Assembly: GCA_011364925.1 (NCBI GenBank)
Contig: RDOA01000004.1
Span: 13,011-77,010 of the forward strand
Length of the DNA: 64,000 nucleotides
Reading direction: 5' to 3'
Source of the DNA: Promethearchaeota archaeon
Lineage (GTDB): Archaea; Asgardarchaeota; Lokiarchaeia; Sigyniarchaeales; SOKP01
Both the position numbers and the translations under genes were made by a program. Of the stretch, positions 748 through 20,598 are shown piece after piece (position 1 is the stretch's first letter; every line of letters starts with the position of its first letter). Under the pieces are notes generated by a model, which saw only the letters and a program-made list of their open reading frames with translations, was not told where the DNA came from and did not search any database.

Positions 748-1632
748 TTGTATTTAAAGATATTGGTTGCAAAATTGAGCTCTAACGATTATAATGAAAA
801 AATTATCGATTGTCTTAACCAAAATAATTTTGGAATGACAATAATACAAATTTCAGAAGAGATAAATGGTAATAGAAATACAGTTTCTAAATACCTCAAT
901 AGGCTAGAATCAAAAGATATCGTCTATAAAAAGGAAATAGGTAAGGCATGTTTATATTTTCTTAAAGATATTGAGTCAAAAGTATTAAATTTTATAAATG
1001 AAAACCCATCAGGAGTTACAATAAAAGACATCTCATATGAATTAAAGCTAACAAGAGATTCGGTGAGAAAACATCTTATAACTCTTGAAAAACAAGATAA
1101 AATCTTTAGCACAAAATTGGGAGCATATACACTTTTTAAAAGTTCAGAAGCAAAATTTGTCCCAAAAAAATTTATGGTTTCCTTCTATAAAGCTCTCCTT
1201 AACGATTTAAAGAAAAAATTTCCGAATAACGAAAGCACATTCAAAGATATCGGACATAATATGTTTGATGATATAAAATTTCCAATTAATAAACTAATAA
1301 TAAAAAAATTGGAAGATTTTAAGACATCTCCTCTCAAACAATTACATTTTGAAGTATTCAAAGATGTATTTCCCTCTTATTATATTTTTGAACCAATCTA
1401 TATTTCAGATCCAAAAATTGACAGCTCAGGAAAGAAAGGTATTTTTAGATTTAAAAATTCAGAATTTTTAAATAATTCTGATTCTCTTTATCACTTTTAT
1501 TTAATATCGGGAATGATTGAAACAAAGATGTCAAATGATCTAGGGGTACCAATTAAATGTAATATCGAACAAATTCACATATCAGAAAAAAAAGAAAATT
1601 CTTATGTAGACATTTCTATAGAGTTCAAATGA
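748..1632 (+). CDS. Transcription regulator with two tandem winged-HTH domains and a C-terminal V4R-like ligand-binding domain
   Basis: Two repeats (GMTIIQISEEINGNRNTVSKYL..LE, GVTIKDISYELKLTRDSVRKHL..LE); C-terminal FKDIG...HFYLISGMIE pattern. True start may be slightly downstream of 748. Confidence 0.7.
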   Translation: MYLKILVAKLSSNDYNEKIIDCLNQNNFGMTIIQISEEINGNRNTVSKYLNRLESKDIVYKKEIGKACLYFLKDIESKVLNFINENPSGVTIKDISYELKLTRDSVRKHLITLEKQDKIFSTKLGAYTLFKSSEAKFVPKKFMVSFYKALLNDLKKKFPNNESTFKDIGHNMFDDIKFPINKLIIKKLEDFKTSPLKQLHFEVFKDVFPSYYIFEPIYISDPKIDSSGKKGIFRFKNSEFLNNSDSLYHFYLISGMIETKMSNDLGVPIKCNIEQIHISEKKENSYVDISIEFK

Positions 1633-1825: not shown

Positions 1826-3112
1826 ATGAACGATATAAGAAAAAAATTAGAAATCCCAAATTCGGCTTTGAATTCTATTAATCAATTTCTTTTAGATGAA
1901 ACTAACCCACTGATTAATGACTTGTTAAGTCTGTTGGATAATTATGGAGGAATAGAAACCATTAATAAAAAAGCCAAAGAAGCAAGTAAATTAGAAAATC
2001 TATTAGATAAATTGGAAAAGAAGAATCCCAGTTATGTAAAAGAAATTGAATGGTTAATCTCTGAAAGAGATAAAAAATCGTTTATTAGTGTAAAGGATTA
2101 TCGGAAGAAAATACTGGGTGAAAAATCCGAGCATGTAACTTTTGACGAGGATTTTGCTGTCACTTTAGAGCTCTCTGCGTGTCAATATTTTCCATTTTTT
2201 ATTGATATTGCGAAGGATGCAATTAAAAATCAGAAATTAGTACCCGGGAGGATAATTCGCGTAAGGAATATGAAAGAGCAGGAAGAAGATGGTGACCTGC
2301 TCGCGATGGCTGCTGCGATGCAGATTATTGGCTCCACCTGGGTAGAAACCCTTGACACGAAAGGCACAGCACCGGGTCCGGATGGAATGCCGGTAAATGT
2401 GCATCTAGGCGGTCCTGATACTATCACTGGATATTTTGGAGGCGTAGGACAACCAAATGAATACGCGCTTAAATGGGTTGATGAGTTTCTTTATTATTAT
2501 ACGAACTATGGTATCAAACAAGTTTTAAATGTGAATCCAGGAACGGTGCTATTAGGATATTTAATCTATAAGTTAGGAATTAATAACGAATTTAAAATTT
2601 CTGTGTATATGGGGAACGATAATCCCTATTCTTGCTTATGGACGCTAATGACAGCGAAATTATTTGCTCGAGAAGATGGAACCAGTCCGTTGATCGGTTT
2701 TAACTTGTCAAATTCAGTTAATAACAAAACGCTTGAACTTGCTGCTTATATACGAAAACCTTTTGGTTTCGAAGATGTTGTTAGGTTAGAGCACCATATT
2801 ACTGAATGTTGGAAAAGTATCGTGAGACAACCATACGATAGAAGGGATGAATTAGTTGAACTAGCTTCAAAAGTAAAGAATGTTAGTGCTAAACATGAGG
2901 GCGCAAATGTAGAAGTTGATAAAAATAGAGAACATCCAACTGATATCCTAGAATATTTTGCTCCTAAAAAAGATCTGATGGAAGCAGGACTTTGGGACGC
3001 CCTTCGAATTAATCATTTAGATCGAAATGATGCGGTTAATTCAACAGCTAAAGCCTTAACGGAAAAAGGCCTAACATTTATCGCAGCTAAGAATTTACAC
3101 TATTGGGAGTAA
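1826..3112 (+). CDS. Uncharacterised protein, probable enzyme, co-transcribed with the aldolase-Fae fusion
   Basis: 428-aa ORF with enzyme-like Gly/His/Glu-rich segments (LELSACQYFP, ETLDTKG, NVHLGGPDTITGYFGG, RLEHHITE, SAKHEG); 16-nt gap and GGAGG before the next gene. Confidence 0.6.
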   Translation: MNDIRKKLEIPNSALNSINQFLLDETNPLINDLLSLLDNYGGIETINKKAKEASKLENLLDKLEKKNPSYVKEIEWLISERDKKSFISVKDYRKKILGEKSEHVTFDEDFAVTLELSACQYFPFFIDIAKDAIKNQKLVPGRIIRVRNMKEQEEDGDLLAMAAAMQIIGSTWVETLDTKGTAPGPDGMPVNVHLGGPDTITGYFGGVGQPNEYALKWVDEFLYYYTNYGIKQVLNVNPGTVLLGYLIYKLGINNEFKISVYMGNDNPYSCLWTLMTAKLFAREDGTSPLIGFNLSNSVNNKTLELAAYIRKPFGFEDVVRLEHHITECWKSIVRQPYDRRDELVELASKVKNVSAKHEGANVEVDKNREHPTDILEYFAPKKDLMEAGLWDALRINHLDRNDAVNSTAKALTEKGLTFIAAKNLHYWE

Positions 3113-3128
3113 ATAGGAGGATTGTATA

Positions 3129-4619
3129 ATGGGAAAATTTGATTTTAGACCGACGGGTGTTATGCCAGCTTTAGTAACTCCCTTTAATAAGGAGGATGAA
3201 TCCATTAACGAAGAAAATCTTAGAAACTTAGTCAATTATCTCATAGAACAAGGAGTTACGGGACTTGTACCTGTAGGAACGACCGGAGAGTTCGTAAATA
3301 TGACGTTTGAAGAGCGCTTAAGAGTCTTGGAAATAGTGGTAGATGAAACAAACGGAAGAGTTCCAGTAATCGGTGGAACGGGAGAGACAGGAACTAAAGT
3401 TGTGATTGATGCAACCAAGGCGGCAACAGACATAGGCTGCGATGCCGCATTAATAGTAACCCCTTACTATTTAAAACCAAAAGCGAAGGGATTATACGAT
3501 CATTATTTCACCATAGCAGAACAAACAGACATTCCGTTAGTGTTGTACAATATTCCAGCGTGTACAGGTGTTGAATTACCGTGGACGGTCGTAGAAGATC
3601 TAGTTGACATCGAAAATATCGTAGCGATCAAAGATTCGAGCGGTGATTACAAGTATTTTTCTGCGTTATTAGAAAAAGTTAGCGACAAAATATCAGTTTT
3701 AATTGGTTGGGACGAAAACGTATTAGGTGCCTTAGCCGGTGGTGCTGCAGGATGTATCCTCGGTTCGGCAAATGTTTTTCCGAAGATATGGCTTGAAATT
3801 TACGATCATGTGAAGAATAATCGCTTAACAGAAGCTCAAGTTCTTCAGAAGAAAGTTCAAAAAATCGCTCGTATGCTTATCAATTCTGGAGCTTTAGGTG
3901 CTAAATCCTGTCTGAACATGATGGGCGTTCCAGTTGGTACAACAAGGCGTCCCATCATTTTAGGAGATGCGCTTTCGTACGAATTTCAAGATGAATTTCG
4001 CGTTGAGTTAGAAAAACTCGGATTAATCGAAAAGAAGGAGATCAAGTTTGAAATTGGTGAGAAAGAACTAACTAGTCGATTTTATGCCGTAGGAGTAACT
4101 CCTGAGAAAATCTCTGATTTTAGGCTAAAAGTTGGGGAATCGCTCGTAGGGAATAGAGCAGAGCTAGCTCATATTGACCTTCTTTTAGGAAGTAAAGGTG
4201 GACCTGTAGGTGATGCCTATGCTCGAGCGTTGACTCATCCTGCAAAAGGTCGTGAAGGATTACAAGTCATTCTCGAACCTAATATGCAGGTTAAACCCCC
4301 AACAATCATGATTCCAACAGTGAAAGTAACATCCCTCCGACACGCGAGCCTAACTTACGGTCCAGCTCAAGCAGCTGTTGCTAAAGCTGTTATGAAGTGC
4401 GTAGAAGACGGAATAATCCCTAAAGAAGCTACAGATGATATCGTAATCGTCGTGAATGTGTTTGTTCACCCTAGCGCAAGTGCTCGGAAAAGAATTTTTA
4501 TCAATAACTATAAAGCGACAAGAAATGCCATTCGAAAGGCGATGGAAGGGTTGCCTACCGTGGATGACGGTATCGAAAATGCTGAAAACGCTCGTCATCC
4601 CTTTAGGAACGATCCTTAA
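3129..4619 (+). CDS. DapA/NanA-family class I aldolase fused to formaldehyde-activating enzyme (Fae)
   Basis: N-terminal PALVTPF, GTTGEF, TPYY, LYNIP, Schiff-base IKDSSGD. From about 4125: VGESLVG..ELAHIDLLLG, KPPT, GPAQAAVAKAV, VFVHP, NYKAT, matching Fae. Confidence 0.9.
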   Translation: MGKFDFRPTGVMPALVTPFNKEDESINEENLRNLVNYLIEQGVTGLVPVGTTGEFVNMTFEERLRVLEIVVDETNGRVPVIGGTGETGTKVVIDATKAATDIGCDAALIVTPYYLKPKAKGLYDHYFTIAEQTDIPLVLYNIPACTGVELPWTVVEDLVDIENIVAIKDSSGDYKYFSALLEKVSDKISVLIGWDENVLGALAGGAAGCILGSANVFPKIWLEIYDHVKNNRLTEAQVLQKKVQKIARMLINSGALGAKSCLNMMGVPVGTTRRPIILGDALSYEFQDEFRVELEKLGLIEKKEIKFEIGEKELTSRFYAVGVTPEKISDFRLKVGESLVGNRAELAHIDLLLGSKGGPVGDAYARALTHPAKGREGLQVILEPNMQVKPPTIMIPTVKVTSLRHASLTYGPAQAAVAKAVMKCVEDGIIPKEATDDIVIVVNVFVHPSASARKRIFINNYKATRNAIRKAMEGLPTVDDGIENAENARHPFRNDP

Positions 4620-4624
4620 TCGAT

Positions 4625-5245
4625 TTATTTCTTCTTTTTTAAGAACTTTTTTTTTATTTCAACACTTTTAGTAAACAAATGAATCCCGAAATAAACCATA
4701 ATTACTCCTATCATTAACCAAAAGAACGATAGAAAAATCGGTAGTTCCCATATTGTTACAAGCAATGCAATAAACGCGATAATATTGACAAGCCCAATTG
4801 CGATTGCGATGATACCTAATATTTGATTTGCTCGTTTTTTTAAATTCTCGCTATCTATGTATATATCAGCGCTTATTAAAAATACGCCATAAACAACAAG
4901 AAAAATACCCGCTAAAGTTAACGGGAGTAAAACCAAGATTCTCAATTCATTAATCACATCAAGGCGAGAATCGGTCATTGCGTATATTGAAGAAATGATA
5001 GGAATTATTCCATCTATAATTGAAATTAAACCTGTTATTTTCACGCTTAATTTTGCTTTTATAATTAAGTAAAATGCGAAAAGTATCATAGTAAAGCTAA
5101 ACACCATTAACGGGATCGATAAGATAATCAATATTGCGTTAGAAACATGGTAATCAAAAAACATGCTCCAGATTGTTACTAATGAAATCCCTAAAAAGAT
5201 GACACCCAACGCCACTAAAAATATTCCTACGCTCTTCTTATCCAT
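4625..5245 (-). CDS. Hypothetical multi-pass membrane protein (about 6 TM)
   Basis: Six hydrophobic segments, Lys-rich C-terminus. Confidence 0.6.
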   Translation of the reverse strand: MDKKSVGIFLVALGVIFLGISLVTIWSMFFDYHVSNAILIILSIPLMVFSFTMILFAFYLIIKAKLSVKITGLISIIDGIIPIISSIYAMTDSRLDVINELRILVLLPLTLAGIFLVVYGVFLISADIYIDSENLKKRANQILGIIAIAIGLVNIIAFIALLVTIWELPIFLSFFWLMIGVIMVYFGIHLFTKSVEIKKKFLKKKK

Positions 5246-5353: not shown

Positions 5354-5917
5354 TTGAAATTCTTTTCATTAGATTTTATAATTATAATCGATTTAAAATC
5401 CAAAAATTTCAAGGAGTTGAATATGATGACAGATAATATTGTTGAATTAAAGGTTGGTGATCCTGCACCCGACTTCTGTCTTCCAGATAAAGACAATAAG
5501 GAAGTATGTCTTAAAGATTTTAAAGGAAAATATATGATTGTTTACTTCTATCCTGCTGATAATACTCCTGGGTGTACCACAGAAGCAATAGGCTTTACTG
5601 ATATTTTGCCAGAATTTCAAAAACTTGACGCAATTGTACTCGGAGTTAGTCCGGATAGCCCGCAATCACACGCGAAATTTATTGAAAAGAAGAATTTGAA
5701 AGTGACTTTATTAAGCGACGAAAATAAAGATGTATTAAAAAACTATGGAGCGTGGGGTCCTAAAAAATTCAGAGGTAAATCATTTATCGGAGTGATTCGA
5801 AGCACATTTTTAGTGGATCCAGAAGGAAAAATAGCACATATTTGGCCAAAAGTAAGCGTTAATGGACATGCTGAGGAAGTAAAAACTAAACTTACCGAAT
5901 TGAAAGCTCAAAGTTAG
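5354..5917 (+). CDS. bcp: Peroxiredoxin, BCP/PrxQ family
   Basis: VGDPAPDF, YFYPADNTPGCTTEA, GVSPD, RSTFLVD. Real start probably the ATG ATG near 5423. Confidence 0.9.
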   Translation: MKFFSLDFIIIIDLKSKNFKELNMMTDNIVELKVGDPAPDFCLPDKDNKEVCLKDFKGKYMIVYFYPADNTPGCTTEAIGFTDILPEFQKLDAIVLGVSPDSPQSHAKFIEKKNLKVTLLSDENKDVLKNYGAWGPKKFRGKSFIGVIRSTFLVDPEGKIAHIWPKVSVNGHAEEVKTKLTELKAQS

Positions 5918-6169
5918 TATCAAAATAAGATAAAAAATAGATAAAATTAGATTGTTAGGTTTTTTTTGCATCTAGATTTTTATATATAATTATTTTGGTT
6001 TAAATTTTCTACTTTTTATTTTATTTATAATTTTTTAAGTTTAGATATTATAAAATTAAACGCCATTATTCAATTTCTAATAGAAATTAAGCAGTAAATT
6101 GATATTTTCTCATTTATATCCTTATCTTGAATAAGTAATTTATCACAAATTAATGAGGCGATAAAAAAG

Positions 6170-6751
6170 ATGAATGTTAAAAAGGCAATAGAGAAAAGAC
6201 GCGCTTATAGATCACTAAAACCGATTAAGATTAACGATAGTCTAATAAAAGAATTAGCACATGTTGCTCAAATCGCTCCTTCTTGTAATAATAATCAGCC
6301 ATGGCGTTTTATATTTGTATATGATAAAGTACAATTGCAAAAATTATTCACAACATTAACCAAGCATAATAATTGGATTGAAAAAACATCAATGATGATT
6401 GCTGTCTATTCAACTCCTAAGAACGATTGTATAATAAAAGAAAGAGAGTACTACTTATTTGATACTGGATTAGCAGCAGCTTTCATTATATTGAGAGCAA
6501 CAGAATTAGGACTTGTAGCACATCCCATCGCTGGATTTGATGAAGAAAAAGCAAAGGAAATATTAGATATTCCCCCAGAGATGAGATTAATTACATTCAT
6601 TAATATAGGAAAGCATTCGAAAGAAGTGAATCCCGTACTTAGTGAAAACATGAAATTGGGTGAAAAACAAAGGCCACCTCGCAAACCGCTTTCTGAATTA
6701 ATGTACATAAATAAATATGGAATCAAATTTCCTGAAAATCAAAATTCTTAA
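6170..6751 (+). CDS. Nitroreductase family protein
   Basis: IEKRRAYR, APSCNNNQPWRF, DTG..A..L.A.ELGL. Confidence 0.9.
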   Translation: MNVKKAIEKRRAYRSLKPIKINDSLIKELAHVAQIAPSCNNNQPWRFIFVYDKVQLQKLFTTLTKHNNWIEKTSMMIAVYSTPKNDCIIKEREYYLFDTGLAAAFIILRATELGLVAHPIAGFDEEKAKEILDIPPEMRLITFINIGKHSKEVNPVLSENMKLGEKQRPPRKPLSELMYINKYGIKFPENQNS

Positions 6752-6770
6752 AAAAAATTAATAAAAGGGA

Positions 6771-7337
6771 TTAAGTTTTCATTTTTTTGAGCACATATGC
6801 AAAATTTTTGCCTAGATTTTTAAATGTTCGAATTCCTTCCTCATCTTCTAATACTTCTCCCGGTTTCCTTCCAATTCCCATATTCCAGTATGTACTGCCT
6901 ACTACAATCATTTCTTTGATCAAAAAGAAATAATTTATACTCGAAAAAACTTGGTTAGAACCTGCTCTTCTAACGGCTACTACAGCAGCACCAATTTTAT
7001 TTTTCAAATGTCTAGATGTTGCAAAACCAGCACGTTCAATCAACGCCTTTGTACTCGTTGATAAGTTTGAATAATATGTTGGAGAACCAATAATTATCCC
7101 ATCAGATTCAAGCATTTTTTCAATATATTCATTCATTTTATCTCCTTTTAGAACACACCTTTGATCATCATTATCAACACATTTATAACATGCAGTACAA
7201 CCTTGTAATTTATCCATACCAATCCAAACATAATCGCAATCGATTCCTTGAGCCGTTAATTCTTCCATCACAATATTTAAGCACTGATATGTGTTTCCTT
7301 CTTTTCGGGGACTACCATTAAATAATACAACCTTCAT
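6771..7337 (-). CDS. Iron-sulfur flavoprotein (Isf)/flavodoxin family
   Basis: GSPRKEGNT, CTACYKC-x7-C cluster motif, GSPTY, RRAG. Confidence 0.85.
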   Translation of the reverse strand: MKVVLFNGSPRKEGNTYQCLNIVMEELTAQGIDCDYVWIGMDKLQGCTACYKCVDNDDQRCVLKGDKMNEYIEKMLESDGIIIGSPTYYSNLSTSTKALIERAGFATSRHLKNKIGAAVVAVRRAGSNQVFSSINYFFLIKEMIVVGSTYWNMGIGRKPGEVLEDEEGIRTFKNLGKNFAYVLKKMKT

Positions 7338-7519
7338 TTTCTTGACCCTTAGGGGTTTTTTTATTTTAACTATAGTTTCAAAATTATAATTTATAGAATA
7401 TTATAATTCTTATTTTTTATCTTTTGAATCCTATGAACTACAAAGTTTTCTTTCATGAATTATAACCATCATTTTGATATAAGTTCAATATATTTAATAT
7501 TTAGAATGGTGAAAATACA

Positions 7520-9592
7520 GTGAATAATATATCAGAGATAAAACATAATAAATTAATCAAGGAAAAGAGTCCATACTTATTACAGCACGCGGATAATCCT
7601 GTTAATTGGTATCCATGGGGAGAAGAGGCTTTTAATAAAGCCAAAAAAGAAAATAAACCAATTTTCTTATCAATAGGGTACTCTACTTGTCATTGGTGCC
7701 ATGTAATGGCACATGAAAGTTTTGAAGATCCGTATGTAGCCAAATTATTAAACGAAAGTTTTGTTTCTATTAAGGTTGATAGAGAAGAGCGTCCAGATAT
7801 AGATAAAATTTACATGATGGTGTGTCAACTTATGACTGGTTCTGGAGGGTGGCCATTAACAATTATCATGACTCCAGATAAAAAGCCTTTTTTTGCGGGA
7901 ACGTATTTTCCTAAAGAAAGTCGATTTGGGAGAATTGGTCTAATTGATTTGATAAATCGAGTAAGTAATTTATGGGTAAATGAAAATAAACAATTAATAG
8001 AATCAGGTGAAAAGGTAACATTTGCGGTGCAAGATGCAAGTTCGGAATCACCGGGTAATAGTTTAGACGAGAGAGTTTTAAAGAGAACTTATTCCCAATT
8101 GCTAGGAAGGTTCGATGAAAAAAATGGTGGTTTTGGGAATGCCCCTAAATTTCCAACTCCACACAATTTACTATTCCTATTGCGATATTGGAAAAGAACT
8201 GGCGAGAATCAAGCACTTGAAATGGTTGAAAAAACTCTTAAATATATGCGGATGGGTGGTATCTACGATCAGATTGGCTATGGATTTCACCGTTATTCAA
8301 CTGATCCTGTATGGCTTGTACCTCATTTTGAAAAAATGTTATACGATCAAGCATTATTGACTCTTGCGTACTTAGAAGCGTATCAAGCGACTGGTAAGGT
8401 CGAATATGCTAATACGGCAAGAGAAATCTTAACTTATGTTTTACGCGATATGACTTCTAACGAAGGTGGTTTTTATAGCGCTGAAGATGCCGATAGCGAA
8501 GGCGTAGAAGGAAAATTTTATGTCTGGTCAATAAGTGAAATCAAGGAAATACTCGGGGAAGAAAATGCTAAAACATTCTCTAATAATTACAATGTTGAAT
8601 TGGCTGGAAATTTTTTAGAAGAAGCAATCAAAAGAAAAACTGGTAAGAATATCCTGCATTTAAGCATAAAGGCTAACGAGGAAAAAAACTCAGATCTTGA
8701 GTTACTTAGAAGAAAATTATTTGAAGCCAGGGAAAAACGAATTAGACCTCATAAAGACGATAAAATATTAACTGATTGGAATGGGTTAATGATTGCAGCG
8801 TTTGCTAAAGCCGGTTACATTCTAGATGAACCGAAGTATATTTTCATTGCTAAAAAGGCTGTGGATTTTATCTTTAATAACATGTTGAACTCTGAAGGGC
8901 GACTTTTACACCGTTATGGCAAAGGAGGAGCTGATATCCTTGCGTTCGTTGATGACTACGCGTTTCTAATATGGGGCTTACTCAATCTTTACGAATCCTC
9001 ATTTGAAACACTATATCTTGAAAAAGCGATTAAATTGACAGAAGAACAGGATAAATTATTTTGGGATACTTCCATAGGGGCATTCTTTTTTACTGCTGAA
9101 GACGCAGAACCATTAATCGCTCGCCAAAAAGAAACGTACGACGGAGCAATCCCCTCGGGTAATTCCGTTGCAATGCTAAATTTACTAAGATTATCTCAAT
9201 TAACCGGAAATAATGATTATGAAAAGAAGGCTGATCGCTTAGGGCGAGTGTTTGCAGAAAGTGTTAAAGCTAACCCAATCGCCTATAGTTTAATGATGGT
9301 TGCCGTCGATTTTGCGGTTGGTCCAACATACTCATTAGTAATCGCAGGAGATTGGGGAAAGGAAGATACGATTTCAATGTTAAACGAAATCAGGAAACAA
9401 TTTTTACCAAATAAGGCGCTAATTTTCCGTCCTACAAACGAAAATAATCCAGAAATCGACACTTATTCTAATTTTATTCAATTTTTTGATAAGTACGAGG
9501 GAAAGGCTACAGCTTTTGTTTGTATTAATAAAACTTGCAAAGCACCAACAAACGATATAATCGAAGCCATACAATATTTAAACGCTATGTAA
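7520..9592 (+). CDS. YyaL/SPATA20-like thioredoxin-domain protein (DUF255 plus alpha-barrel)
   Basis: [53 protein letters not shown]. Confidence 0.92.
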
Positions 9593-9603
9593 TTACAACT
9601 TCG

Positions 9604-10359
9604 TTATATAATGGGAATCTTTCCCACTGGGGCAATTAAAACCACAAACTCATTTTTTCCATCTAATCCTAGCAAAGTATCGAACTTTTTTTGCTCATAA
9701 TACCCAATAGCAACCGTGCCTAAATCTAGTGCTTCGCAGGCGAGGTATAAGTTTTGAGAAACATGTCCTAAGTCTATGGCAATGAATTTGTGAGCAAGAA
9801 TAGTGTATCGCCACTCCGTTCGATAAGGAACTGCTACCCAACAGAACACTACTGCTCCTTTTCCAACAAACTTTTGATCGTAAGCTAATTCTCCAATTTT
9901 CTGTTCCGAATTTTCAATATTTTTTATAAATAATAGTCGGTGTTTAAAAGAAATATAACGATACAAACCTGGATCGATTCCTTCTACGCGATTAATTATA
10001 AGGTAAGTCTCGAATGGACTTTTTGCACCAGCGGAAGGAACGGTTCGCATAACTCCTGCTCTTTTTTTAAAAGCTCTCTTTACTCCTTGCGTACACCAGA
10101 GTAGAAATGATAACTCCTCAAGTGTTATCGGTTCATCTGTGTAGTTTCTTCGACTCATCCTACGATTTACTAGCTCTAAAAATGATATGTTCCCAATCTC
10201 AAACTTAGTAGGAGGGATTAAATCAATTAACTTCCCAGTTTCGTTGTATGGCTTTTGGAATAATGGAAATGGTTTATTCTTACTTTCATCTGATTTTGGT
10301 ACTACTTTCGCATAGTCGTTTTTATCAAAAAAATGCAAAAATTGTCTATTTTCTTCCAT
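9604..10359 (-). CDS. SagB/ThcOx-type nitroreductase-family flavoprotein
   Basis: RRMSRRNY, LSFLLWCTQG, RTVPSAGA, GLYRY, DLGHVSQNLYL. Confidence 0.85.
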   Translation of the reverse strand: MEENRQFLHFFDKNDYAKVVPKSDESKNKPFPLFQKPYNETGKLIDLIPPTKFEIGNISFLELVNRRMSRRNYTDEPITLEELSFLLWCTQGVKRAFKKRAGVMRTVPSAGAKSPFETYLIINRVEGIDPGLYRYISFKHRLLFIKNIENSEQKIGELAYDQKFVGKGAVVFCWVAVPYRTEWRYTILAHKFIAIDLGHVSQNLYLACEALDLGTVAIGYYEQKKFDTLLGLDGKNEFVVLIAPVGKIPII

Positions 10360-10441
10360 AGAACATTACCTAAATAAAAGAAAATTGGCTACTTCATAAG
10401 TTTATTCTATTATTGTTAACAAGAACTTTGAGCTTTACAAA

Positions 10442-11080
10442 TCATTTCTCTTCTAACGCAAAAATCTTATGCGCATCCTTCAGTCTTAAAAGAGCAGTTA
10501 GAAAGACTAATACTGCAAATATCCACAGAATTTCAAAAAGCCACGGAATTAAGAGAATTAAAGCTATTAAAAACAAAAAAGTCTCAGAACGCTCGATGAG
10601 CCCACTCTGATACATCATTACTTTTGAAGTTTTTCCCGACTCATTTCTTTTCATAACTCCGCCAACAATAAGAACCATAGAAGTGCACAAGACAATCGCT
10701 GCTAAAGAAAACACTCCTGGTATTGAAAGGTTCGATGGATCGGTTGCCACAATTGCAATTATTATAGATACTTCAACTAAGCGATCACAAAAAATATCTA
10801 AAATACCTCCAAAGATTGTATAACCTTCAATTCGAGCAATAGGACCATCCATTGTATCAATTACGAAAGAAATAATCGTAAATGTTAAAGAGAATGCAAT
10901 GAATAATCCTGTGAAATCTATATATATGCAGCTTGAATATGCGCATACCGCACCAATCAGTCCTGTAACTAATCCTAAAACAGTCAGTTGATTAGCAGAA
11001 ATCCTATTTTGCAAAATTCTTCTGATAAACTTCTCGTAATTTTCCTTAAATTTCGTTCTAGAAAGCCACTTATCTATCAT
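10442..11080 (-). CDS. CDP-alcohol phosphatidyltransferase
   Basis: ANQLT and signature DxxDGxxAR-x7-GxxxDxxxD (DTMDGPIARIEGYTIFGGILDIFCD); multiple TM segments. Confidence 0.88.
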   Translation of the reverse strand: MIDKWLSRTKFKENYEKFIRRILQNRISANQLTVLGLVTGLIGAVCAYSSCIYIDFTGLFIAFSLTFTIISFVIDTMDGPIARIEGYTIFGGILDIFCDRLVEVSIIIAIVATDPSNLSIPGVFSLAAIVLCTSMVLIVGGVMKRNESGKTSKVMMYQSGLIERSETFLFLIALILLIPWLFEILWIFAVLVFLTALLRLKDAHKIFALEEK

Positions 11081-11682
11081 ATTGAAATACCACTTTTTCT
11101 CAATTCTTCTCGTAAATTTGTTTCTGGTTTATTCCAAATAGTTTTCATACCGAGCTTTTTAGCCGGCTTTAGGTAAAATAAAACATCGTCGATGAACAAA
11201 CTCTCTTCAGGAATAAGATGGTAACGATTAAGTAATATTAAATAAAGCTTTTTTTCAGGTTTGATAGCCTTTTCGAATCCAGAAATAATCTGTCCGTCAA
11301 ATAAATGAAAAATATCATACTTTTTCTCGATATAAACATAAGTTTCCTTTATAAAATTAGATAAAACAAAGATTTTAAAACCTATGTCTCGTAATTCCTT
11401 TACGATTTTCATATTTTCTTCGATAGGTATAAGCATTTCCATCCAATGTTCAAAAAACAACCGTAAAAAAGCCTCTTCACCAGGATATTTAGCTATAAAG
11501 GTTTTTTCAGCGTTCTCTAAAGAAATTGTTCCCCGATCTAGCTCCACCCATACGCTACTTCGAAAGATTTTAGCGATAAATTCATTAATGTATTCAGCAT
11601 CGTTGGTGAATCTTAAAAGAAATTCACTTGGTTGGAACTTTAATAGAACATTTCCTAAATCGAAAATGATGTTCTTTATCAT
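11077..11682 (-). CDS. HAD-superfamily phosphatase (YihX-like)
   Basis: IIFDLGNVL, LSN, KP, FIDD; ATGA overlap with the downstream gene. Confidence 0.88.
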   Translation of the reverse strand: MIKNIIFDLGNVLLKFQPSEFLLRFTNDAEYINEFIAKIFRSSVWVELDRGTISLENAEKTFIAKYPGEEAFLRLFFEHWMEMLIPIEENMKIVKELRDIGFKIFVLSNFIKETYVYIEKKYDIFHLFDGQIISGFEKAIKPEKKLYLILLNRYHLIPEESLFIDDVLFYLKPAKKLGMKTIWNKPETNLREELRKSGISI

Positions 11683-11735
11683 CCTACACTAAATAATAAA
11701 ATTAAAAGAAATAAAAATTAATATCAAAAAGTAGG

Positions 11736-12575
11736 TTAATATTCGTTTGGCATTTTTTTGAGTTCTGCCAGTGAAAATACAGGTCCGTCTATACACACAT
11801 ACTTGCTTCCGATATTACATCTTCCACACTTTCCAATCCCACATTTCATCCTCATCTCTAAGGAATTGAGAATCTGCTCGTCTTTCCAACCAATTTTCAC
11901 GAGCTCATCAACAGCGGTCCTAATCATAATTGGAGGACCACAGATAATTGCTACTGCGTTATCCGGAGAAGGAGCAACTTCTTTAACTATTGCGGCTACA
12001 AATCCTACTTTTCGCGTCCACCCTTCCTCCTCGCGATCAATCGTCAAAACTACATCAATATCGTCTCGCTTTTCCCACTCTTCGAGAACATCTCGATAAA
12101 GAACCTCTCCCGAATCTCTATTCCCATAGATTACAGTTACGTTTCCATAATCTTTTCTATGTTTCTCATCTAGAATATACAAAATGAGGGATCGTAATGT
12201 TGAGAACGCAAATCCACCGCCAATTACCACAATGTTTTTTCCTTTCAGTTCCTCGATTGGCCACCCGTTCCCTAACGGCCCTCTCACGCCAATTGTATCT
12301 CCAATATCACTTCTATGGAACATAGAAGTAACAGTTCCCATTTTCTTAATCGTAAATTTAATACTACCTTCTTCAGTAGGAGACGATGCGATCCCAATCG
12401 GACATTCTCCTTTACCTATAATGCTTATTTCTGCAAATTGACCTGGAATATAATCAAAACTTTTGTAATCGTCTTCTTTTTGGAACTGTAATTCAATCGT
12501 TTTAATGTCATTAACTTTATTTTCTGAAATTATTGATTTTACTTTTGTAAGTATTGGGATGTAAGGATTAGGCAT
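11736..12575 (-). CDS. flxA: FlxA-like FAD/NAD(P)-binding [2Fe-2S] subunit (PyrK/AsrB family)
   Basis: PGQF, GPLGNG, GGG, CGPPIM, MKCGIGKCGRC...VCIDGPVF. Start placed at ATG 12575 (MPNPY), overlapping the upstream stop; ORF track extends to 12623. Confidence 0.85.
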   Translation of the reverse strand: MPNPYIPILTKVKSIISENKVNDIKTIELQFQKEDDYKSFDYIPGQFAEISIIGKGECPIGIASSPTEEGSIKFTIKKMGTVTSMFHRSDIGDTIGVRGPLGNGWPIEELKGKNIVVIGGGFAFSTLRSLILYILDEKHRKDYGNVTVIYGNRDSGEVLYRDVLEEWEKRDDIDVVLTIDREEEGWTRKVGFVAAIVKEVAPSPDNAVAIICGPPIMIRTAVDELVKIGWKDEQILNSLEMRMKCGIGKCGRCNIGSKYVCIDGPVFSLAELKKMPNEY

Positions 12576-13629
12576 TTGCCTTCTCACCCTCTTCTTTTTG
12601 TTCAATTTCAAGGATTTTATCAATAATTAATCGAAGCTCGTTATTAACTGGACAGGCTACGATACACCTACCGCATCCAACGCACCCTAAGCGGTCGTAA
12701 TTGGAAGGATAATAGCTAAATTTGTGCATAATGCGGTTTCTACATCGTTGGATCTTTTCTGGGCGAGGGTTGTGACCGCTCGTTTCCAGCGTATAAAGAC
12801 ACGATTGGCAGGTGTCCCAAATCCGTATCCGCCTGCCTCGATGATTGTATTCGTCGTTTTCGTCGATCACATCAAAACATGTACAAGTGGGGCATAAGAA
12901 CGTACACGAACTGCATCCGATACAGCTTTCAGCGATCTCCTCCCAAACGGGATTTTCGAAGTTCTCGTCTAATACTTTTGTAACTAAATCAAAATTAAAT
13001 TTAGTGGTAAATGACTCCTCTGCTTGCTTTGCCAGCGCTTTAGACTTTTCTACATCCCCCTTTTTCGCGTCAGTAAGCCAGGATAATTTTTTAACCAGAT
13101 CTTTACCTTTTTCCGTAATAGTTTCAACTAAATAATAATCCCCTAAATCTGAGAGAAAGACATCAGTCGATTCTTTTTGGTATGGATGACCTCCAACAGA
13201 CGTACAAAAACACGACTGCCTTGGTTCATTGCATCCTATACCGATAATCGTCGCATTCTCTCGCTTCTTTAGAAACACATCGTCTTGAAATTCACCGAAA
13301 GCAAAAAAGTCTTCTAATAGTTTAAAACTATAGGCGTCGCAAGGTCGAACTCCAAAGATTAATAGCTTATCCTCTAAATCTTTCCGTTCATCGATTATGA
13401 CGTCTTTCCCCTCGTAATGATACTCAAAGATCGTTTCTTTTTGAGGAAATAATACGTCTTTCGGGGGAACTTTCGAATTAAGGTAATCTAACTCGATCTC
13501 TTTCGCGTCTGAGATCAATTCAAAGGAGATATTACCCCTCACCTTTTTTGGGGCATAAAAATTATATTCGTCTTTAACTTCATTAAATAACTTGCTAATA
13601 TCGCTCTTCTTTAATAACTTTTCATCCAT
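12568..13629 (-). CDS. flxB: FlxB-like 4Fe-4S protein (AsrA family)
   Basis: GVRPCD, CFC, CIGCSSCTFLCPTCTCF, WDTC, CVGCGRCIVACP. Confidence 0.85.
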   Translation of the reverse strand: MDEKLLKKSDISKLFNEVKDEYNFYAPKKVRGNISFELISDAKEIELDYLNSKVPPKDVLFPQKETIFEYHYEGKDVIIDERKDLEDKLLIFGVRPCDAYSFKLLEDFFAFGEFQDDVFLKKRENATIIGIGCNEPRQSCFCTSVGGHPYQKESTDVFLSDLGDYYLVETITEKGKDLVKKLSWLTDAKKGDVEKSKALAKQAEESFTTKFNFDLVTKVLDENFENPVWEEIAESCIGCSSCTFLCPTCTCFDVIDENDEYNHRGRRIRIWDTCQSCLYTLETSGHNPRPEKIQRCRNRIMHKFSYYPSNYDRLGCVGCGRCIVACPVNNELRLIIDKILEIEQKEEGEKANA

Positions 13630-13631
13630 AT

Positions 13632-14663
13632 CTAATCCTCCTCTAACATAAATTCTTCTGCGTCCTCCATTTTAAAATCTGTCATCGGCGGTAACGTGTC
13701 AGGATCGAGGCCTGAAGTAAAATCGAATCGTTGTTTCACAATTTTTTCCAACTTTCTATTGATAAAGTTGAGATCGATTCCCATTGGGCAGACTAACGAG
13801 CAAGCACCGCAAGCCACGCACCTCCCTGCCATGTGCATCGCGCGGATCAAGTGATATACGATAATGTCTGGCATGTCCGTCGTTTTCCCGAACCAGATCG
13901 GCTTGTTCTGGTCCACAAAACAGAGGTTGCAATAACACATAGGACAGGCTTCTCGACACGCGTAGCACCTCGTGCACACGCTTAAAGCGTCTTGGATATA
14001 TGCCCACTTTTCTTCTGGAGATTTCGCCTCGAACTCCGCGATATCGTCAAATTCGTCTACAATACTTGCATACTCCTCGCACGCACCAACGTGCAGATCT
14101 GGAAACTTGGAAACTAAAGGAGGACTCCTAATCTTGCACTGTTTGCATAACTCGTTCATATATTCATCGAAAGGAAACTCCTTTTCAAAGTTTTTCCCTT
14201 TCACGACGATGTTATTTCCGGACGCAGTAACTTCGAGAATTTCTTTTTCGCCAATTTCCATCTCGATCCGTTGCCGGTTAATAACACCGTTGCAAGGAAT
14301 TCCTATAATCGTAATCTCGTCTAAATTAATTCTATTTTCAGATGCTAAGTGAATTAACGCTCTCCCCACGCATCCCTTAGCCACCACGCCCACTTTAAGA
14401 TTGCCTTTTTCGGGATCCACGAATTTTGCAACCCTTGGGACGAGATACTTCGCTAGATTTACGTAGCAAGTATTGTTCCATAGCAATTTGTCTACATCTT
14501 CCTCCTTGTCGATGATAATTGGTTGAGACATCATCGGTAGCGTTCCTTTTTTATACCCAATTATCACGTCTACTTTCTTTTCTTTGAGCAAGCCTCTTGC
14601 AAGTTCTCGCATATTGCTCTCTATCTCTTTATTTTCTTCTTCAAGTCCCACGATCATCACCAT
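13632..14663 (-). CDS. flxC: FlxC-like 4Fe-4S protein
   Basis: CTRCYACREACPMCYC, H.AGRCVACGACSLVCP; lies between mvhD and flxB. Confidence 0.8.
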   Translation of the reverse strand: MVMIVGLEEENKEIESNMRELARGLLKEKKVDVIIGYKKGTLPMMSQPIIIDKEEDVDKLLWNNTCYVNLAKYLVPRVAKFVDPEKGNLKVGVVAKGCVGRALIHLASENRINLDEITIIGIPCNGVINRQRIEMEIGEKEILEVTASGNNIVVKGKNFEKEFPFDEYMNELCKQCKIRSPPLVSKFPDLHVGACEEYASIVDEFDDIAEFEAKSPEEKWAYIQDALSVCTRCYACREACPMCYCNLCFVDQNKPIWFGKTTDMPDIIVYHLIRAMHMAGRCVACGACSLVCPMGIDLNFINRKLEKIVKQRFDFTSGLDPDTLPPMTDFKMEDAEEFMLEED

Positions 14664-15115
14664 TTCTTCTCAAATTTTTTGTTTGGTCCCAATTTTTTCA
14701 CGATTTCGGTTGCTTTCCGAATTAACACGGCGAAACGCTCGCCTTCTGCGGCGGAAGCCCACATAAAGTTAACTCTTCCGGGTTCTATGCCGAAAAACTC
14801 TAACAGTTCTTTCAAAATCGCAAACCTTCGACGGGCTACCAAATTTCCACTAATATAGTGGCAATCGCCGGGATGACATCCAGAAACGACGACTCCATCC
14901 CAACCATCGGTTAAACTCTTAATAATGAAATAAGCGTTAATCCTTCCCGAGCAAGGAACTCTAACAATCCTTATATTAGGAGGGTATTGGATTCTACTTA
15001 CGCCCGCTAAATCGGCTCCCGCGTAAGAACACCAATTACACAAAAACGCAATAATTTTTGGCTCCCATTTTTCACTTTCAGTCTGTTTTTCAATAGCTTG
15101 TTCTGTCATTTTCAC
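14657..15115 (-). CDS. mvhD: MvhD/FlxD [2Fe-2S] subunit
   Basis: FLCNWCSYAGADLAG, RVPCSGR, GCHPGDCHY. Confidence 0.92.
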   Translation of the reverse strand: MKMTEQAIEKQTESEKWEPKIIAFLCNWCSYAGADLAGVSRIQYPPNIRIVRVPCSGRINAYFIIKSLTDGWDGVVVSGCHPGDCHYISGNLVARRRFAILKELLEFFGIEPGRVNFMWASAAEGERFAVLIRKATEIVKKLGPNKKFEKKW

Positions 15116-18100
15116 AACCTCCCAGTTATCATAGCATATATTTGTTCAGATGTAAACCCTGCTACATCTATTGCAGCACACCTACAATTTCCTGAACAAG
15201 CACCACATCCTTTACAAAGTGCTTGATTAATAACAGCAACGGTACCAAATCTTCGATCCTCTATCAATTCTATCGCATTATATGCACAATTATCAATACA
15301 CATACCGCAACCGCTACATCTAGAAGGATCGACAGAAGCAATCTTGCCCTCGGCTTCTATTTCATCTTTTGAAAGAATTGTACACGCTCTTGAAACTGCA
15401 GCATTAGCTTGAGAAATTGAATCTTCGATTGTTTTCGGACAATGGGCTAATCCAGCGACAAACACTCCTTCAGTTGCAAAATCAACAGGTCGTAATTTTA
15501 CATGAGCCTCTAAAAAGAAATTATCGTCATTTAAAGGTACTTTTAGCATTTTACCAAGTTCTTCATTCTCCTCATGAGGTGCAACAATTCCAGCACTTAA
15601 TACAAGTAAATCTGTGGGTATTAATAGATTGCCTACTTTTTTGGCTTTGACATCTACCTTTAAGGAAGAACCATTTACAGTAACTTCAGGGGGATAATTT
15701 TCGTCAAATCGAAGGAAAATAACTCCTGCTTCTCTTGCTTTTCTATAATATGTTTCTTTAAACCCATAAGTTCTAATATCTCGGAATAAAATTATTATTT
15801 CTTTTTCTGGATGTAGCTTTTTTACTAATAACGCATTTTTTATAGCTTCAGCGCAACACATTTTACTACAGTAAGGATGATCATCGTTTCTAGAACCTAC
15901 ACACTGTATCATTACAATAGTATTTTTATCTTTTATAGCTCCATTTGTATTTAGAATTTTTTCAAATTCTGATTGTAAAATTACATTCTTATTTTGACCA
16001 TAAAGATATTCTTTAGGTTTATACTCTTTAGCTCCTGTTGCAACAACAACGACTCCATGCTCAAATTCTACTCTATCTTTATTCGGACCGTGTAATACTG
16101 TTGTTTTAAAATTGCCTATATATCCGTTTATAGTTTCAATCTCAGCGTCAAGATAAACATGAATAAATTTATTTGAATTTATTTTTTCAATTAAATTTGA
16201 CAGATAAGCTTGGACATCCCCGCCCTCAAGCGTATGATATATATGATTAGCAAAACCACCTAATTTTGACTCATTTTGAACTAAATGAGTTTCAATTTCT
16301 TGACTTGCAAAATTTAGAGCTGCAACCATGCCAGTAATCCCTCCACCGATAACCATGGCCTTTTTTGTGACTCCCAACTTTATCCTGTCTATCGGAGCAA
16401 TTCTACGAGCTTTATTAACAGCCATTCTCACAAGGTCTTTTGCTTTCTCTGTAGCTTTTTCAGGTTGGTTCATATGGACCCATGAGCACTGATCTCTAAT
16501 ATTAGCCATTTGAAACAAGTATCTATTTAATCCTGCTTCCCGTATCGTTTCTTGGAATAGGGGTTCATGAGTTCTTGGTGTGCATGAAGCTACAATAACA
16601 CGATTTAAATGATATTCTTCAATTTTTTCTTTAATGATCCCTTGAGTGTCCGCTGAGCATGTATACAGATTTCTATCGGACATAACTACATTTGGAAGAG
16701 TAGCTGCATAACGAGTTACTTCTGGTACATCTACATATCCACCTATGTTAATTCCACAATGGCATATAAATACTCCGATTCTTGGAGGTTGACCTGCTAC
16801 AAAAATTTCAGGTGGTAAGGTTTTTTCTGTAATTAATTTACCTCTTTCAGAAAATAGAATTTGATCAACACATCCAGCGGCTGCACTTGCTTGAGTAACT
16901 GTTTCAGGAATGTCTTTAGGTTGGGAAAAAGCTCCACAAGCAAAAATTCCAGGTTTGGTCGTTTGTACTGGATTAAAAATATCAGTTTCAGCAAAACCGT
17001 ATGGGTTTAATTTTATTCCAAACTTGTCAGCAAGATGTTGTGCGTCACGTGGAGGATTTAATCCAACTCCCAATACTACCATATTATAGACTTCTTCTAT
17101 AACCTCTTCATCTTCATTTTCATATCTTAAGATTAGATCTTTTGTTTTATGATCTTCATCTATAGAAGAAATGCGACTTCTAATATACCTAACACCGTAT
17201 TCTTCTTGAGCTCTTATAATATATTTATCAAAGTCTTTTCCATAGGCTCGAATATCCATGCTAAAAATGGTAGGTTTTACTTCATGTTGATGTTCATGAG
17301 CGATGACAGCTTCTTTAGCCGTATACATGCAACAAACAGAAGAGCAATACGGTTGACCTTCTCCTGTATAGTCCCGTGACCCTACGCATTGAAGAAAAGC
17401 AACTTTTTGTGGAATATCACCATCAGAAGGTCTTAGAACTCTTCCCGCATAAGGACCACTCGCACTTAATATACGCTCAAATTCAATGCTAGTAACAACA
17501 TTTTTGAATTTACCAAAACCATATTTATTAACCTCTGGAGGCAAATATTCATCGAAACCGGGGGCTAATATTATAGCACCAACATTGATATCAATAATTT
17601 CATCTTTTCTATCGTATTCAACGGCTTTAGCTTTACAAACTCCCGCACATACTCCACAACCTATACAATAATCTTTATTAATAGCATATACAAGCGGAAC
17701 TGCTTGTGGATATTTCACTGAAGTTGCAGCGTATTTTGCTAAACCTTCGTTGAATAAATCTATTGCCTCAACTGGGCAGTTTCGTCCACAAACACCGCAT
17801 CCAGTACATTTATCTGGATTAATATATAATGAATTCTTTTTTACCTTAACAGTGAAGTTTCCGGCTTGTCCCGAGACCTTTAAAATCTCACAATTAATAT
17901 TTAAATCAATATTCTGGTGACGTCCAGTTTCTACAAGCTTTGGACTTACAATACACATAGCACAATCATTTGTGGGAAAAGTTTTATCAAGTTGTGCCAT
18001 AACTCCACCTATACTTGTACTAGATTCGATTAAAAACACTTTTAACCCAGAATCACCTAAATCTAGCGCGGCTTGGGAACCCCCAATTCCAGCGCCTACA

Positions 18101-18126
18101 ATCATAACTGCACCTACTTTTTCCAT
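15112..18126 (-). CDS. hdrA: Heterodisulfide reductase subunit A-like, long form with two FAD modules
   Basis: GAGIGG, QLDKTFPTNDCAMC, QCVGSR..YCSSVCC, CHCG, CTPRTHE, second GGG and QCVGSR..YCSKMCC, C-terminal 2x[4Fe-4S]. Confidence 0.92.
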   Translation of the reverse strand: MEKVGAVMIVGAGIGGSQAALDLGDSGLKVFLIESSTSIGGVMAQLDKTFPTNDCAMCIVSPKLVETGRHQNIDLNINCEILKVSGQAGNFTVKVKKNSLYINPDKCTGCGVCGRNCPVEAIDLFNEGLAKYAATSVKYPQAVPLVYAINKDYCIGCGVCAGVCKAKAVEYDRKDEIIDINVGAIILAPGFDEYLPPEVNKYGFGKFKNVVTSIEFERILSASGPYAGRVLRPSDGDIPQKVAFLQCVGSRDYTGEGQPYCSSVCCMYTAKEAVIAHEHQHEVKPTIFSMDIRAYGKDFDKYIIRAQEEYGVRYIRSRISSIDEDHKTKDLILRYENEDEEVIEEVYNMVVLGVGLNPPRDAQHLADKFGIKLNPYGFAETDIFNPVQTTKPGIFACGAFSQPKDIPETVTQASAAAGCVDQILFSERGKLITEKTLPPEIFVAGQPPRIGVFICHCGINIGGYVDVPEVTRYAATLPNVVMSDRNLYTCSADTQGIIKEKIEEYHLNRVIVASCTPRTHEPLFQETIREAGLNRYLFQMANIRDQCSWVHMNQPEKATEKAKDLVRMAVNKARRIAPIDRIKLGVTKKAMVIGGGITGMVAALNFASQEIETHLVQNESKLGGFANHIYHTLEGGDVQAYLSNLIEKINSNKFIHVYLDAEIETINGYIGNFKTTVLHGPNKDRVEFEHGVVVVATGAKEYKPKEYLYGQNKNVILQSEFEKILNTNGAIKDKNTIVMIQCVGSRNDDHPYCSKMCCAEAIKNALLVKKLHPEKEIIILFRDIRTYGFKETYYRKAREAGVIFLRFDENYPPEVTVNGSSLKVDVKAKKVGNLLIPTDLLVLSAGIVAPHEENEELGKMLKVPLNDDNFFLEAHVKLRPVDFATEGVFVAGLAHCPKTIEDSISQANAAVSRACTILSKDEIEAEGKIASVDPSRCSGCGMCIDNCAYNAIELIEDRRFGTVAVINQALCKGCGACSGNCRCAAIDVAGFTSEQIYAMITGRL

Positions 18127-18138
18127 ATTTCATCCTCC

Positions 18139-18900: not shown

Positions 18901-18902
18901 TT

Positions 18903-20594: not shown

Positions 20595-20598
20595 TTTG

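Follow-up and report, generated by a model that had tools for sequence, protein, structure and literature searches.

The aldolase-Fae fusion

In this study, we analysed a 64,000-nucleotide stretch of contig RDOA01000004.1 (positions 13,011 to 77,010; assembly GCA_011364925.1) of a Promethearchaeota archaeon from the Lokiarchaeia, hereafter called the window. It carries a single open reading frame (ORF; P0001) of 496 residues, in which a class I aldolase domain of the DHDPS/NAL family is fused to a formaldehyde-activating enzyme (Fae) domain. The gene is preceded on the same strand by that of P0122, a protein without assigned family, and further upstream by a gene encoding a helix-turn-helix (HTH) protein. 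The coordinates are collected in Table 1; the labels of genomes (G), contigs (C), loci (L), families (f) and genera (g) are our own.

Both domains of the fusion are complete. The aldolase domain matches PF00701 over profile positions 2-272 of 289 (Pfam; E 7.8e-76, 255 bits), and the Fae domain matches PF08714 over positions 1-158 of 159 (E 5.2e-57, 192.7 bits) as well as the NCBIfam model TIGR03126 (191.2 bits, cut-off 118). The match to the Fae-Hps model NF009833 is confined to the Fae part and reaches 157.6 bits against a cut-off of 274, and the NanA and HpaI-like NCBIfam models gave secondary matches on the aldolase domain, far under their cut-offs. The linker between the two Pfam envelopes is variable in the family alignment (alignment A2).

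The aldolase domain holds the carboxylate-binding motif GTTGE, the catalytic Tyr140 and the Schiff-base Lys168. In E. coli DapA, Arg138 binds the carboxylate of aspartate semialdehyde; this position is occupied by Cys145 in the fusion, and GWDE is found where DapA has GDD. The Fae domain retains AHID with His348, NVFVHP and the C-terminal ARHPFR tail, and it aligns without gaps to Fae of M. extorquens (PDB 1Y5Y; E 8.7e-33). Canonical Fae is a homopentamer, which binds tetrahydromethanopterin (H4MPT) between subunits and condenses formaldehyde with it. The Fae domain of the fusion is likely functional and H4MPT-dependent. An initial annotation, made from the DNA letters, had already described a complete class I aldolase domain with GTTGE and the lysine of IKDSS, the motif YNIPACT in place of the DHDPS arginine loop, and an in-frame Fae domain keeping the AHID histidine; the profile matches and motifs bear out each of these descriptions, and the coordinates given for YNIPACT were exact.

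Hundreds of proteins of 495-496 residues from Asgard metagenome-assembled genomes have the same architecture (85-98% identity), and an exhaustive search found about a dozen further full-length, more divergent clusters (35-51% identity), some of which are labelled Thorarchaeota or Korarchaeota/Thermoproteota. The fusion is therefore no assembly artefact. GTTGE, Tyr140 and Lys168 are kept in the window protein and most of its relatives at 35-95% identity. According to alignment A2, every fusion relative has C, V, T or L in place of Arg138 (motif YNIPQ[CVTL]T), and the family has G[HW]DE at the GDD position. The same alignment separates two subtypes: type A, which includes the window protein, has the Fae histidine motif, NVFVHP and the ARHPFR tail, whereas type B has a degenerate Fae domain lacking both the histidine and the C-terminal tail. 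Outside the lineage of the window, the two subtypes form a tandem pair with type B upstream in 4/4 divergent-cluster loci and also in family f9, and this pairing suggests a hetero-oligomer.

Table 1. Features of the window and of the loci compared with it (positions without a locus label are those of the window).
Feature	Position	Strand	Remark
Double winged-helix (HTH) protein	748..1632	+	possible regulator; Pfam HTH_24, HTH_IclR and MarR_2 matches
P0122, operon partner without family	1826..3112	+	428 aa; helical N-domain + TIM barrel (about residues 105-428)
Intergenic spacer	3113..3128	+	16 nt, GGAGG before fusion ATG; sequence reading
Fusion ORF (P0001)	3129..4619	+	single ORF, 496 aa
DHDPS/NAL-family class I aldolase domain	3150..3959	+	residues 8-277; PF00701
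GTTGE carboxylate-binding motif	3276-3290	+	residues 50-54
TPYY	3459-3470	+	aldolase domain
YNIPACT	3546-3566	+	residues 140-146
Catalytic Tyr140	3546-3548	+	
Cys145	3561-3563	+	at E. coli DapA Arg138 position
IKDSS	3627-3641	+	residues 167-171
Schiff-base Lys168	3630-3632	+	
GWDE	3705-3716	+	where DapA has GDD
Linker	3960..4130	+	residues 278-334 (about 57 residues), including C-terminal helices of aldolase fold; between two Pfam envelopes
Fae domain	4131..4604	+	residues 335-492; PF08714, TIGR03126
AHID	4167-4178	+	residues 347-350
Fae His348	4170-4172	+	
Convergent ORF	4625-5245	-	206 aa, no family match
Redox/stress gene run	5354-10359		downstream of fusion
HdrA/MvhD/FrhB-like gene cluster	11736-23037	-	
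Bifunctional Fae-Hps	L003 1480-2763		same genome
Tandem fusion paralogues	L008 8544-11449; L010 6528-9479; L012 6715-9398; L014 6628-9479		also L048-L051, L054
P0122-aminotransferase-Hom-AOR-aminotransferase operon	L021 4078-10698; L022 9337-15896; L023 9304-14759	-; +; +	
Relatives' ACT-hom-thrC operon	L030, L031, L033 (about 7000-12500 each)		
315-aa gene upstream of fusion	L046 10713-11660; L047 10726-11715; L053 10729-11676	-	no Pfam match
M20-family gene	L046 6762-8177; L047 6149-7480; L048 14690-15847; L049 12457-13638		
M20-family gene, further loci	L050 12157-13284; L014 10253-11380; L042 12981-14489		

Separateness from DapA and distribution with H4MPT genes

Public databases name the fusion proteins 4-hydroxy-tetrahydrodipicolinate synthase (DapA). 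This name is very probably wrong, because a canonical dapA lies elsewhere in the genome, the fusion forms a clade of its own, and it is present in families in which DapB was not found. The genome of the window (3.9 Mb, estimated completeness 100%) encodes exactly two members of the DHDPS family, the fusion and a canonical DapA of 300 residues, in which the motif YNVPSRTG keeps the arginine; the gene of the latter directly adjoins dapB at G000:C45, with a lysA fragment nearby. In a tree of 99 aldolase domains, built with FastTree only, all fusion domains group together (SH-like support 98), and the DapA of the same genome falls in another clade. For occurrence counts, 301 genomes were sampled across the phylum; in this sample DapB was found only in the class containing the family of the window, and DapB_C was not found in the fusion-carrying families f9 (0/76), f14 (0/19), f29 (0/11), f15 (0/3) and f23 (0/3). 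That the fusion is not DapA is very likely. Since hundreds of proteins carry this name, lineages in which DapB was not found may be mistaken for lysine prototrophs.

Mch is a marker of the H4MPT one-carbon (C1) pathway. It is encoded in the genome of the window (C26) and in most genomes of families f1 (67/68), f9 (73/76), f14 (18/19), f15 (3/3) and f29 (11/11), and it was not found in f7 (0/28), f24 (0/21) and f16 (0/11). In the 301-genome sample, the fusion is confined to Mch-positive families, none having been found in f7, f24 and f16. Within the order of the window, genus g11 has both Mch and the fusion (75% identity), and genera g10 and g13 have neither. The genome also encodes a normal bifunctional Fae-Hps, so that the fusion represents a second, distinct formaldehyde-coupled function. 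Two arguments of the initial annotation are thus well supported: that the protein is not a lysine-synthesis enzyme, for which a separate canonical dapA and a phylogeny against DHDPS had been proposed as checks, and that Fae implies formaldehyde and H4MPT.

The partner protein P0122 and its association with homoserine and threonine genes

The short gap with GGAGG between P0122 and the fusion suggests that both genes are co-transcribed, and the HTH protein, whose gene ends 194 nt before P0122, is a possible regulator of this two-gene module. Scanning for promoters and terminators gave chance-level results with bacterial models, which are not applicable to archaea.

P0122 had no match in Pfam (E up to 10), in NCBIfam or in the PDB, searched by sequence and by profile, and nothing was found in the ESM Atlas by features or by shape. 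Two AlphaFold2 models were made, the second of which (pLDDT 81.4) combines a TIM barrel with a helical domain at the N-terminus. With the P0122 model, Foldseek placed transaldolase, class II FBP aldolases and DAHP synthase in the lead with weak scores, and VIA-align placed BKACE/DUF849 and glutamate mutase E first (Z 12-12.8, compared with 10.8 at rank 50); these generic or aldolase-like TIM-barrel matches are statistically tied, and no family could be assigned. A diverged type B fusion paralogue was also rejected as its identity (hhalign probability 0.3%). A complex prediction for the fusion and P0122 scored 0.00, which counts neither for nor against binding.

Across the phylum sample, P0122 homologues are 62-100% identical (loci L021-L029, L037, L042 and L043), and their invariant motif blocks include VETLDTKGT, NVHLGGP, FKISVYMGNDNP, LEHHITE and SAKHEG. 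P0122 adjoins the fusion in L007, L029 and L037 and is near it in L005 and L006. Within the family of the window, genera g1, g2, g4 and g5 have both P0122 and the fusion, and neither was found in g3 and g6-g9; even within a genus, the near-complete genomes G083, G104, G231 and G261 are without both. Owing to this joint gain and loss, the pair behaves as one dispensable cassette. In families f14 and f20, which are without P0122, a gene of 315 residues lies directly upstream of the fusion; a short relative of P0122 was considered for it and not accepted, the weak collinear similarity of the barrels (hhalign probability 18.8%) being a hint only.

The families f7 and f24, which are Mch-negative and fusion-less, possess a conserved operon that starts with P0122 and continues with a class I/II aminotransferase, homoserine dehydrogenase (Hom), aldehyde:ferredoxin oxidoreductase (AOR) and a second aminotransferase; in about 28 genomes, P0122 and Hom share a strand and are 1.5-9 kb apart. 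The order of these genes is collinear with the series 4-hydroxy-2-oxobutanoate (HOB) <-> homoserine <-> aspartate semialdehyde <-> aspartate <-> oxaloacetate, in which AOR might interconvert aspartate and aspartate semialdehyde. HOB was taken as the compound shared with the fusion, since it is the one compound that a pyruvate-type class I aldolase could cleave with release of formaldehyde and that could also be converted to and from homoserine by transamination. Four f7/f24 genomes were searched further: three of them have no DHDPS gene and none has Asd, and all four gave ThrC-family matches, over the cut-off in three. The operon of f24 adjoins Opp/Dpp-type ABC transporter genes. Genus g10, also Mch-negative, has a divergent, stand-alone DHDPS-like gene in front of P0122; it retains the catalytic Tyr as well as the Lys, within MKDSSG, and has a PQIT motif resembling the one found in the fusion family. 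In f9, an ECF S-component gene adjoins P0122, and at least 20 genomes have a ThrC-like gene at a distance of about 2 kb from it.

The fusion-bearing families show a marked, phylogenetically non-independent tendency to lack Hom yet keep ThrC-like genes. Hom was counted in 3/76 genomes of f9, 0/19 of f14, 0/11 of f29 and 0/3 of f15, and ThrC-like genes in 71/76, 15/19 and 3/3 genomes of f9, f14 and f15, respectively; a gene of the Asd/ArgC family was present in 15 of 81 genomes of f9. Within the family of the window, our own count gave Hom in 18 of the 21 fusion-less genomes versus 16 of the 47 fusion-bearing ones. Searches of the window's genome with profiles, and with relatives' genes by tblastn, did not find Hom, ThrC or ThrB; Asd is present.

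Relatives that possess Hom carry it in an ACT-hom-thrC operon, which at L030, L031 and L033 reads ACT, hom, SLOG/LOG-like gene and thrC; an AIR-synthase-related (PurM-like) gene and an MtrH-like gene are located just upstream. A canonical homoserine kinase (ThrB) was not found in five ThrC-bearing Asgard genomes searched, and the PurM-like gene could be the one that encodes this enzyme. P0122 was rejected for this role, because the relatives G083, G104, G231 and G261 have the hom-thrC operon without P0122, which consequently cannot be the general kinase.

Proposed reaction, alternatives and related systems

The best single explanation for the fusion, to which we would assign a probability of about one half, is the reaction HOB + H4MPT <-> pyruvate + 5,10-methylene-H4MPT + H2O. 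The fusion would be a bifunctional enzyme, consisting of a DapA-derived class I (Schiff-base) 2-oxo-acid aldolase, which has lost the aspartate-semialdehyde site, and a functional Fae. Lys168 would form the pyruvate enamine or the HOB imine, with formaldehyde as the aldol partner, which the Fae domain would trap on H4MPT or release from there. Free formaldehyde could in this way be kept low, and the aldol equilibrium would be linked to the C1 units in the methyl branch of the archaeal Wood-Ljungdahl pathway. P0122, as the other member of the two-gene module, would make or remove the same C4 compound of the homoserine skeleton as the aldolase. The gene contexts suggest two fates of HOB: conversion to pyruvate and methylene-H4MPT where H4MPT exists, and oxidation by way of homoserine and aspartate where H4MPT is absent.

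The initial annotation had proposed interconversion of pyruvate plus formaldehyde and HOB, with a link to homoserine metabolism. Both the substrate and the link gain independent but indirect support from the P0122 operons with Hom and aminotransferases and from the ThrC-like neighbour; for the substrate, the coupling or channelling between the domains and the direction, we infer the most plausible case. Since Hom, ThrC and ThrB were not found in the genome of the window, the module cannot serve threonine synthesis there, and catabolic cleavage of HOB is the simpler and more likely reading for this genome. A role of the fusion as a Hom substitute for threonine was accordingly rejected for this genome, ThrC and ThrB being missing from the matches too, and is possible in other families. 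In families with ThrC but without Hom and Asd, the module may supply homoserine. A natural, H4MPT-linked step of a 'homoserine cycle', in which pyruvate and methylene-H4MPT give HOB and then homoserine, could even be the main homoserine/threonine route of ThrC-keeping lineages that lack Asd, Hom and a canonical kinase, although we consider this doubtful. Families f17, f19 and f22 have ThrC-like matches but neither Hom nor the fusion, so that the complementarity of the fusion with Hom, and with it the fit of an anabolic role, is imperfect.

Several other observations likewise weigh against the HOB reaction. The aldolase part exceeds the cut-off of the dapA equivalog model TIGR00674 (234.8 bits, cut-off 206.15; NCBIfam), and its closest solved structures are true DHDPSs (for example 3PUD, 2YXG and 1DHP; E 1e-52). 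The substrate is one we infer from genomic context, and the compared genomes are related, so that the counts are not independent. The fusion and P0122 are not strictly tied to each other: P0122 is missing from f14, f15 and f23, which carry the fusion, and f9 has both genes but not in linkage. No reaction could be assigned to P0122, and the shared intermediate could therefore be homoserine, aspartate semialdehyde or another compound. Finally, both copies of the L008 tandem pair (P0249 and P0251) are without the Schiff-base Lys according to alignment A2.

The HOB reaction was compared with four alternatives. The first keeps formaldehyde and changes the 2-oxo-acid donor or product to 2-oxobutanoate, 2-oxoisovalerate (PanB-like ketopantoate synthesis with methylene-H4MPT) or hydroxypyruvate (giving a 2-oxo-tetronate). 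The Fae fusion specifies the C1 aldehyde only, the family-specific changes PQ[CV]T and G[HW]DE could reshape the site, and sugar-nucleotide genes (UDP-glucose dehydrogenase, deacetylase and hexapeptide transferase) are nearby in L005-L007; however, the contexts of P0122 with Hom and ThrC-like genes indicate an unbranched C4 homoserine skeleton, which makes another donor unlikely. Replacement of PanB was rejected as the principal explanation, since a normal PanB is present in the genome (369 bits).

It is also rather improbable that only Fae is catalytic, for formaldehyde detoxification or activation, and that the DHDPS fold is an oligomerisation scaffold or regulatory domain. Loss of Lys at L008 is the main evidence for a scaffold-only role in some lineages, and the aldolase fold of that lineage cannot act as a class I aldolase; other catalytic residues are missing from this pair as well, and its downstream copy retains the Fae His motif. 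The degenerate Fae of type B paralogues suggests structural roles for some copies, and peroxiredoxin and other stress genes lie nearby. Against this stand the conservation of GTTGE, Tyr140 and Lys168 in the window protein and most relatives, the Fae-Hps that the genome already has, and the fact that P0122, where Fae is absent, pairs with a DHDPS-like gene that stands alone.

A pterin- or H4MPT-binding module, with an aldolase acting on an H4MPT-bound or pterin-biosynthetic intermediate, would agree with the RibD_C, MoaA/MoaC and radical-SAM genes that flank some tandem pairs (L008, L012) and with the restriction of the fusion to H4MPT lineages, but these neighbours differ between loci and the Fae domain is canonical over its full length, so that we regard this reading as quite improbable. 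A true DapA with an accessory Fae domain, as in the public annotation, is the least probable of all: the TIGR00674 score, the closest solved relatives and the name in the sources speak for it, and the substitution of Arg138 in every family member, the separate dapA beside dapB, the separate clade and the occurrence where DapB was not found leave it very little room.

Other genes surround the fusion. The convergent ORF downstream has a counterpart in L005 and L006, where an unannotated gene of 198 residues occupies the same position. It is followed by the redox/stress run, which comprises an AhpC/TSA peroxiredoxin, two nitroreductase-family genes, an FMN reductase and a DUF255 thioredoxin-domain protein of 690 residues; a peroxiredoxin also adjoins the fusion in L005-L007. 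Further downstream, in a large cluster, HdrA-like flavoproteins, two MvhD (FlpD) proteins, an FrhB-like F420 subunit, ferredoxin-domain proteins and an NAD/FAD oxidoreductase are encoded, which looks like an electron-bifurcation-type module typical of Lokiarchaeia. A gene for an M20-family peptidase/amidohydrolase is repeatedly found no more than a few kb away from the fusion or P0122 in several families.

Asgard archaea are the closest prokaryotic relatives of eukaryotes. If the HOB reaction is true, their Wood-Ljungdahl methyl branch would have a new entry or exit point, and reconstructions of their carbon and amino-acid metabolism would change. The analysis gives a concrete handle on the highly conserved orphan family of P0122 and highlights gaps in Asgard threonine synthesis, namely ThrB in the five genomes searched and Asd/Hom in many. 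If the anabolic reading is true as well, a new amino-acid biosynthetic pathway would branch directly from the Wood-Ljungdahl methyl branch, and the P0122 family would catalyse a so far undescribed step of the C4 skeleton.

Among known systems, DapA enzymes are the closest sequence relatives, with the fold, Schiff-base Lys, catalytic Tyr and GTTGE in common; the fusion differs in Cys for Arg138, GWDE for GDD, its separate clade, the Fae fusion and the absence of a dapB link. NanA, KDG aldolase, HOGA and YagE/YjhH are likewise class I pyruvate aldolases without the DapA Arg and cleave 4-hydroxy-2-oxo acids; to our knowledge, none of them is fused to Fae or releases formaldehyde. PanB (PF02548) may serve as a chemical analogy, as it moves a pterin-bound methylene group onto the C3 carbon of a 2-oxo acid and so forms a 4-hydroxy-2-oxo acid, but it is unrelated to the fusion, has a single domain, depends on a metal and takes 2-oxoisovalerate as its substrate.

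The HOB chemistry itself has a precedent. According to a previous study, E. coli RhmA has pyruvate + formaldehyde <-> HOB aldolase activity and was used in an engineered homoserine cycle; amination of HOB to homoserine by ordinary aminotransferases was established for E. coli enzymes, and HOB was described as a non-native metabolite (PMC8879981). The same chemistry followed by transamination to homoserine is proposed here; RhmA is, however, a metal-dependent class II enzyme that acts promiscuously on free formaldehyde, whereas the fusion is proposed as a dedicated, H4MPT-coupled class I enzyme. If this is true, a dedicated archaeal enzyme joins the H4MPT C1 pool to pyruvate through a C4 keto acid that metabolic engineers have treated as non-natural (PMC8879981).

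The nearest functional analogue is Fae-Hps, in which Fae is also joined to a formaldehyde-releasing or -fixing aldolase and C-C cleavage is coupled to the H4MPT C1 pool. Hps has an OMPDC fold, lies C-terminal to Fae and acts on a sugar phosphate skeleton; the aldolase of the fusion is a DHDPS-family class I enzyme, lies N-terminal, and is proposed to act on a 2-oxo acid. Full-text literature searches and a paper on Asgard C1 metabolism gave no description of a DHDPS-Fae fusion. The coupling of an aldolase to Fae is already known as such, and the fusion described here has a real chance of marking a new pathway.

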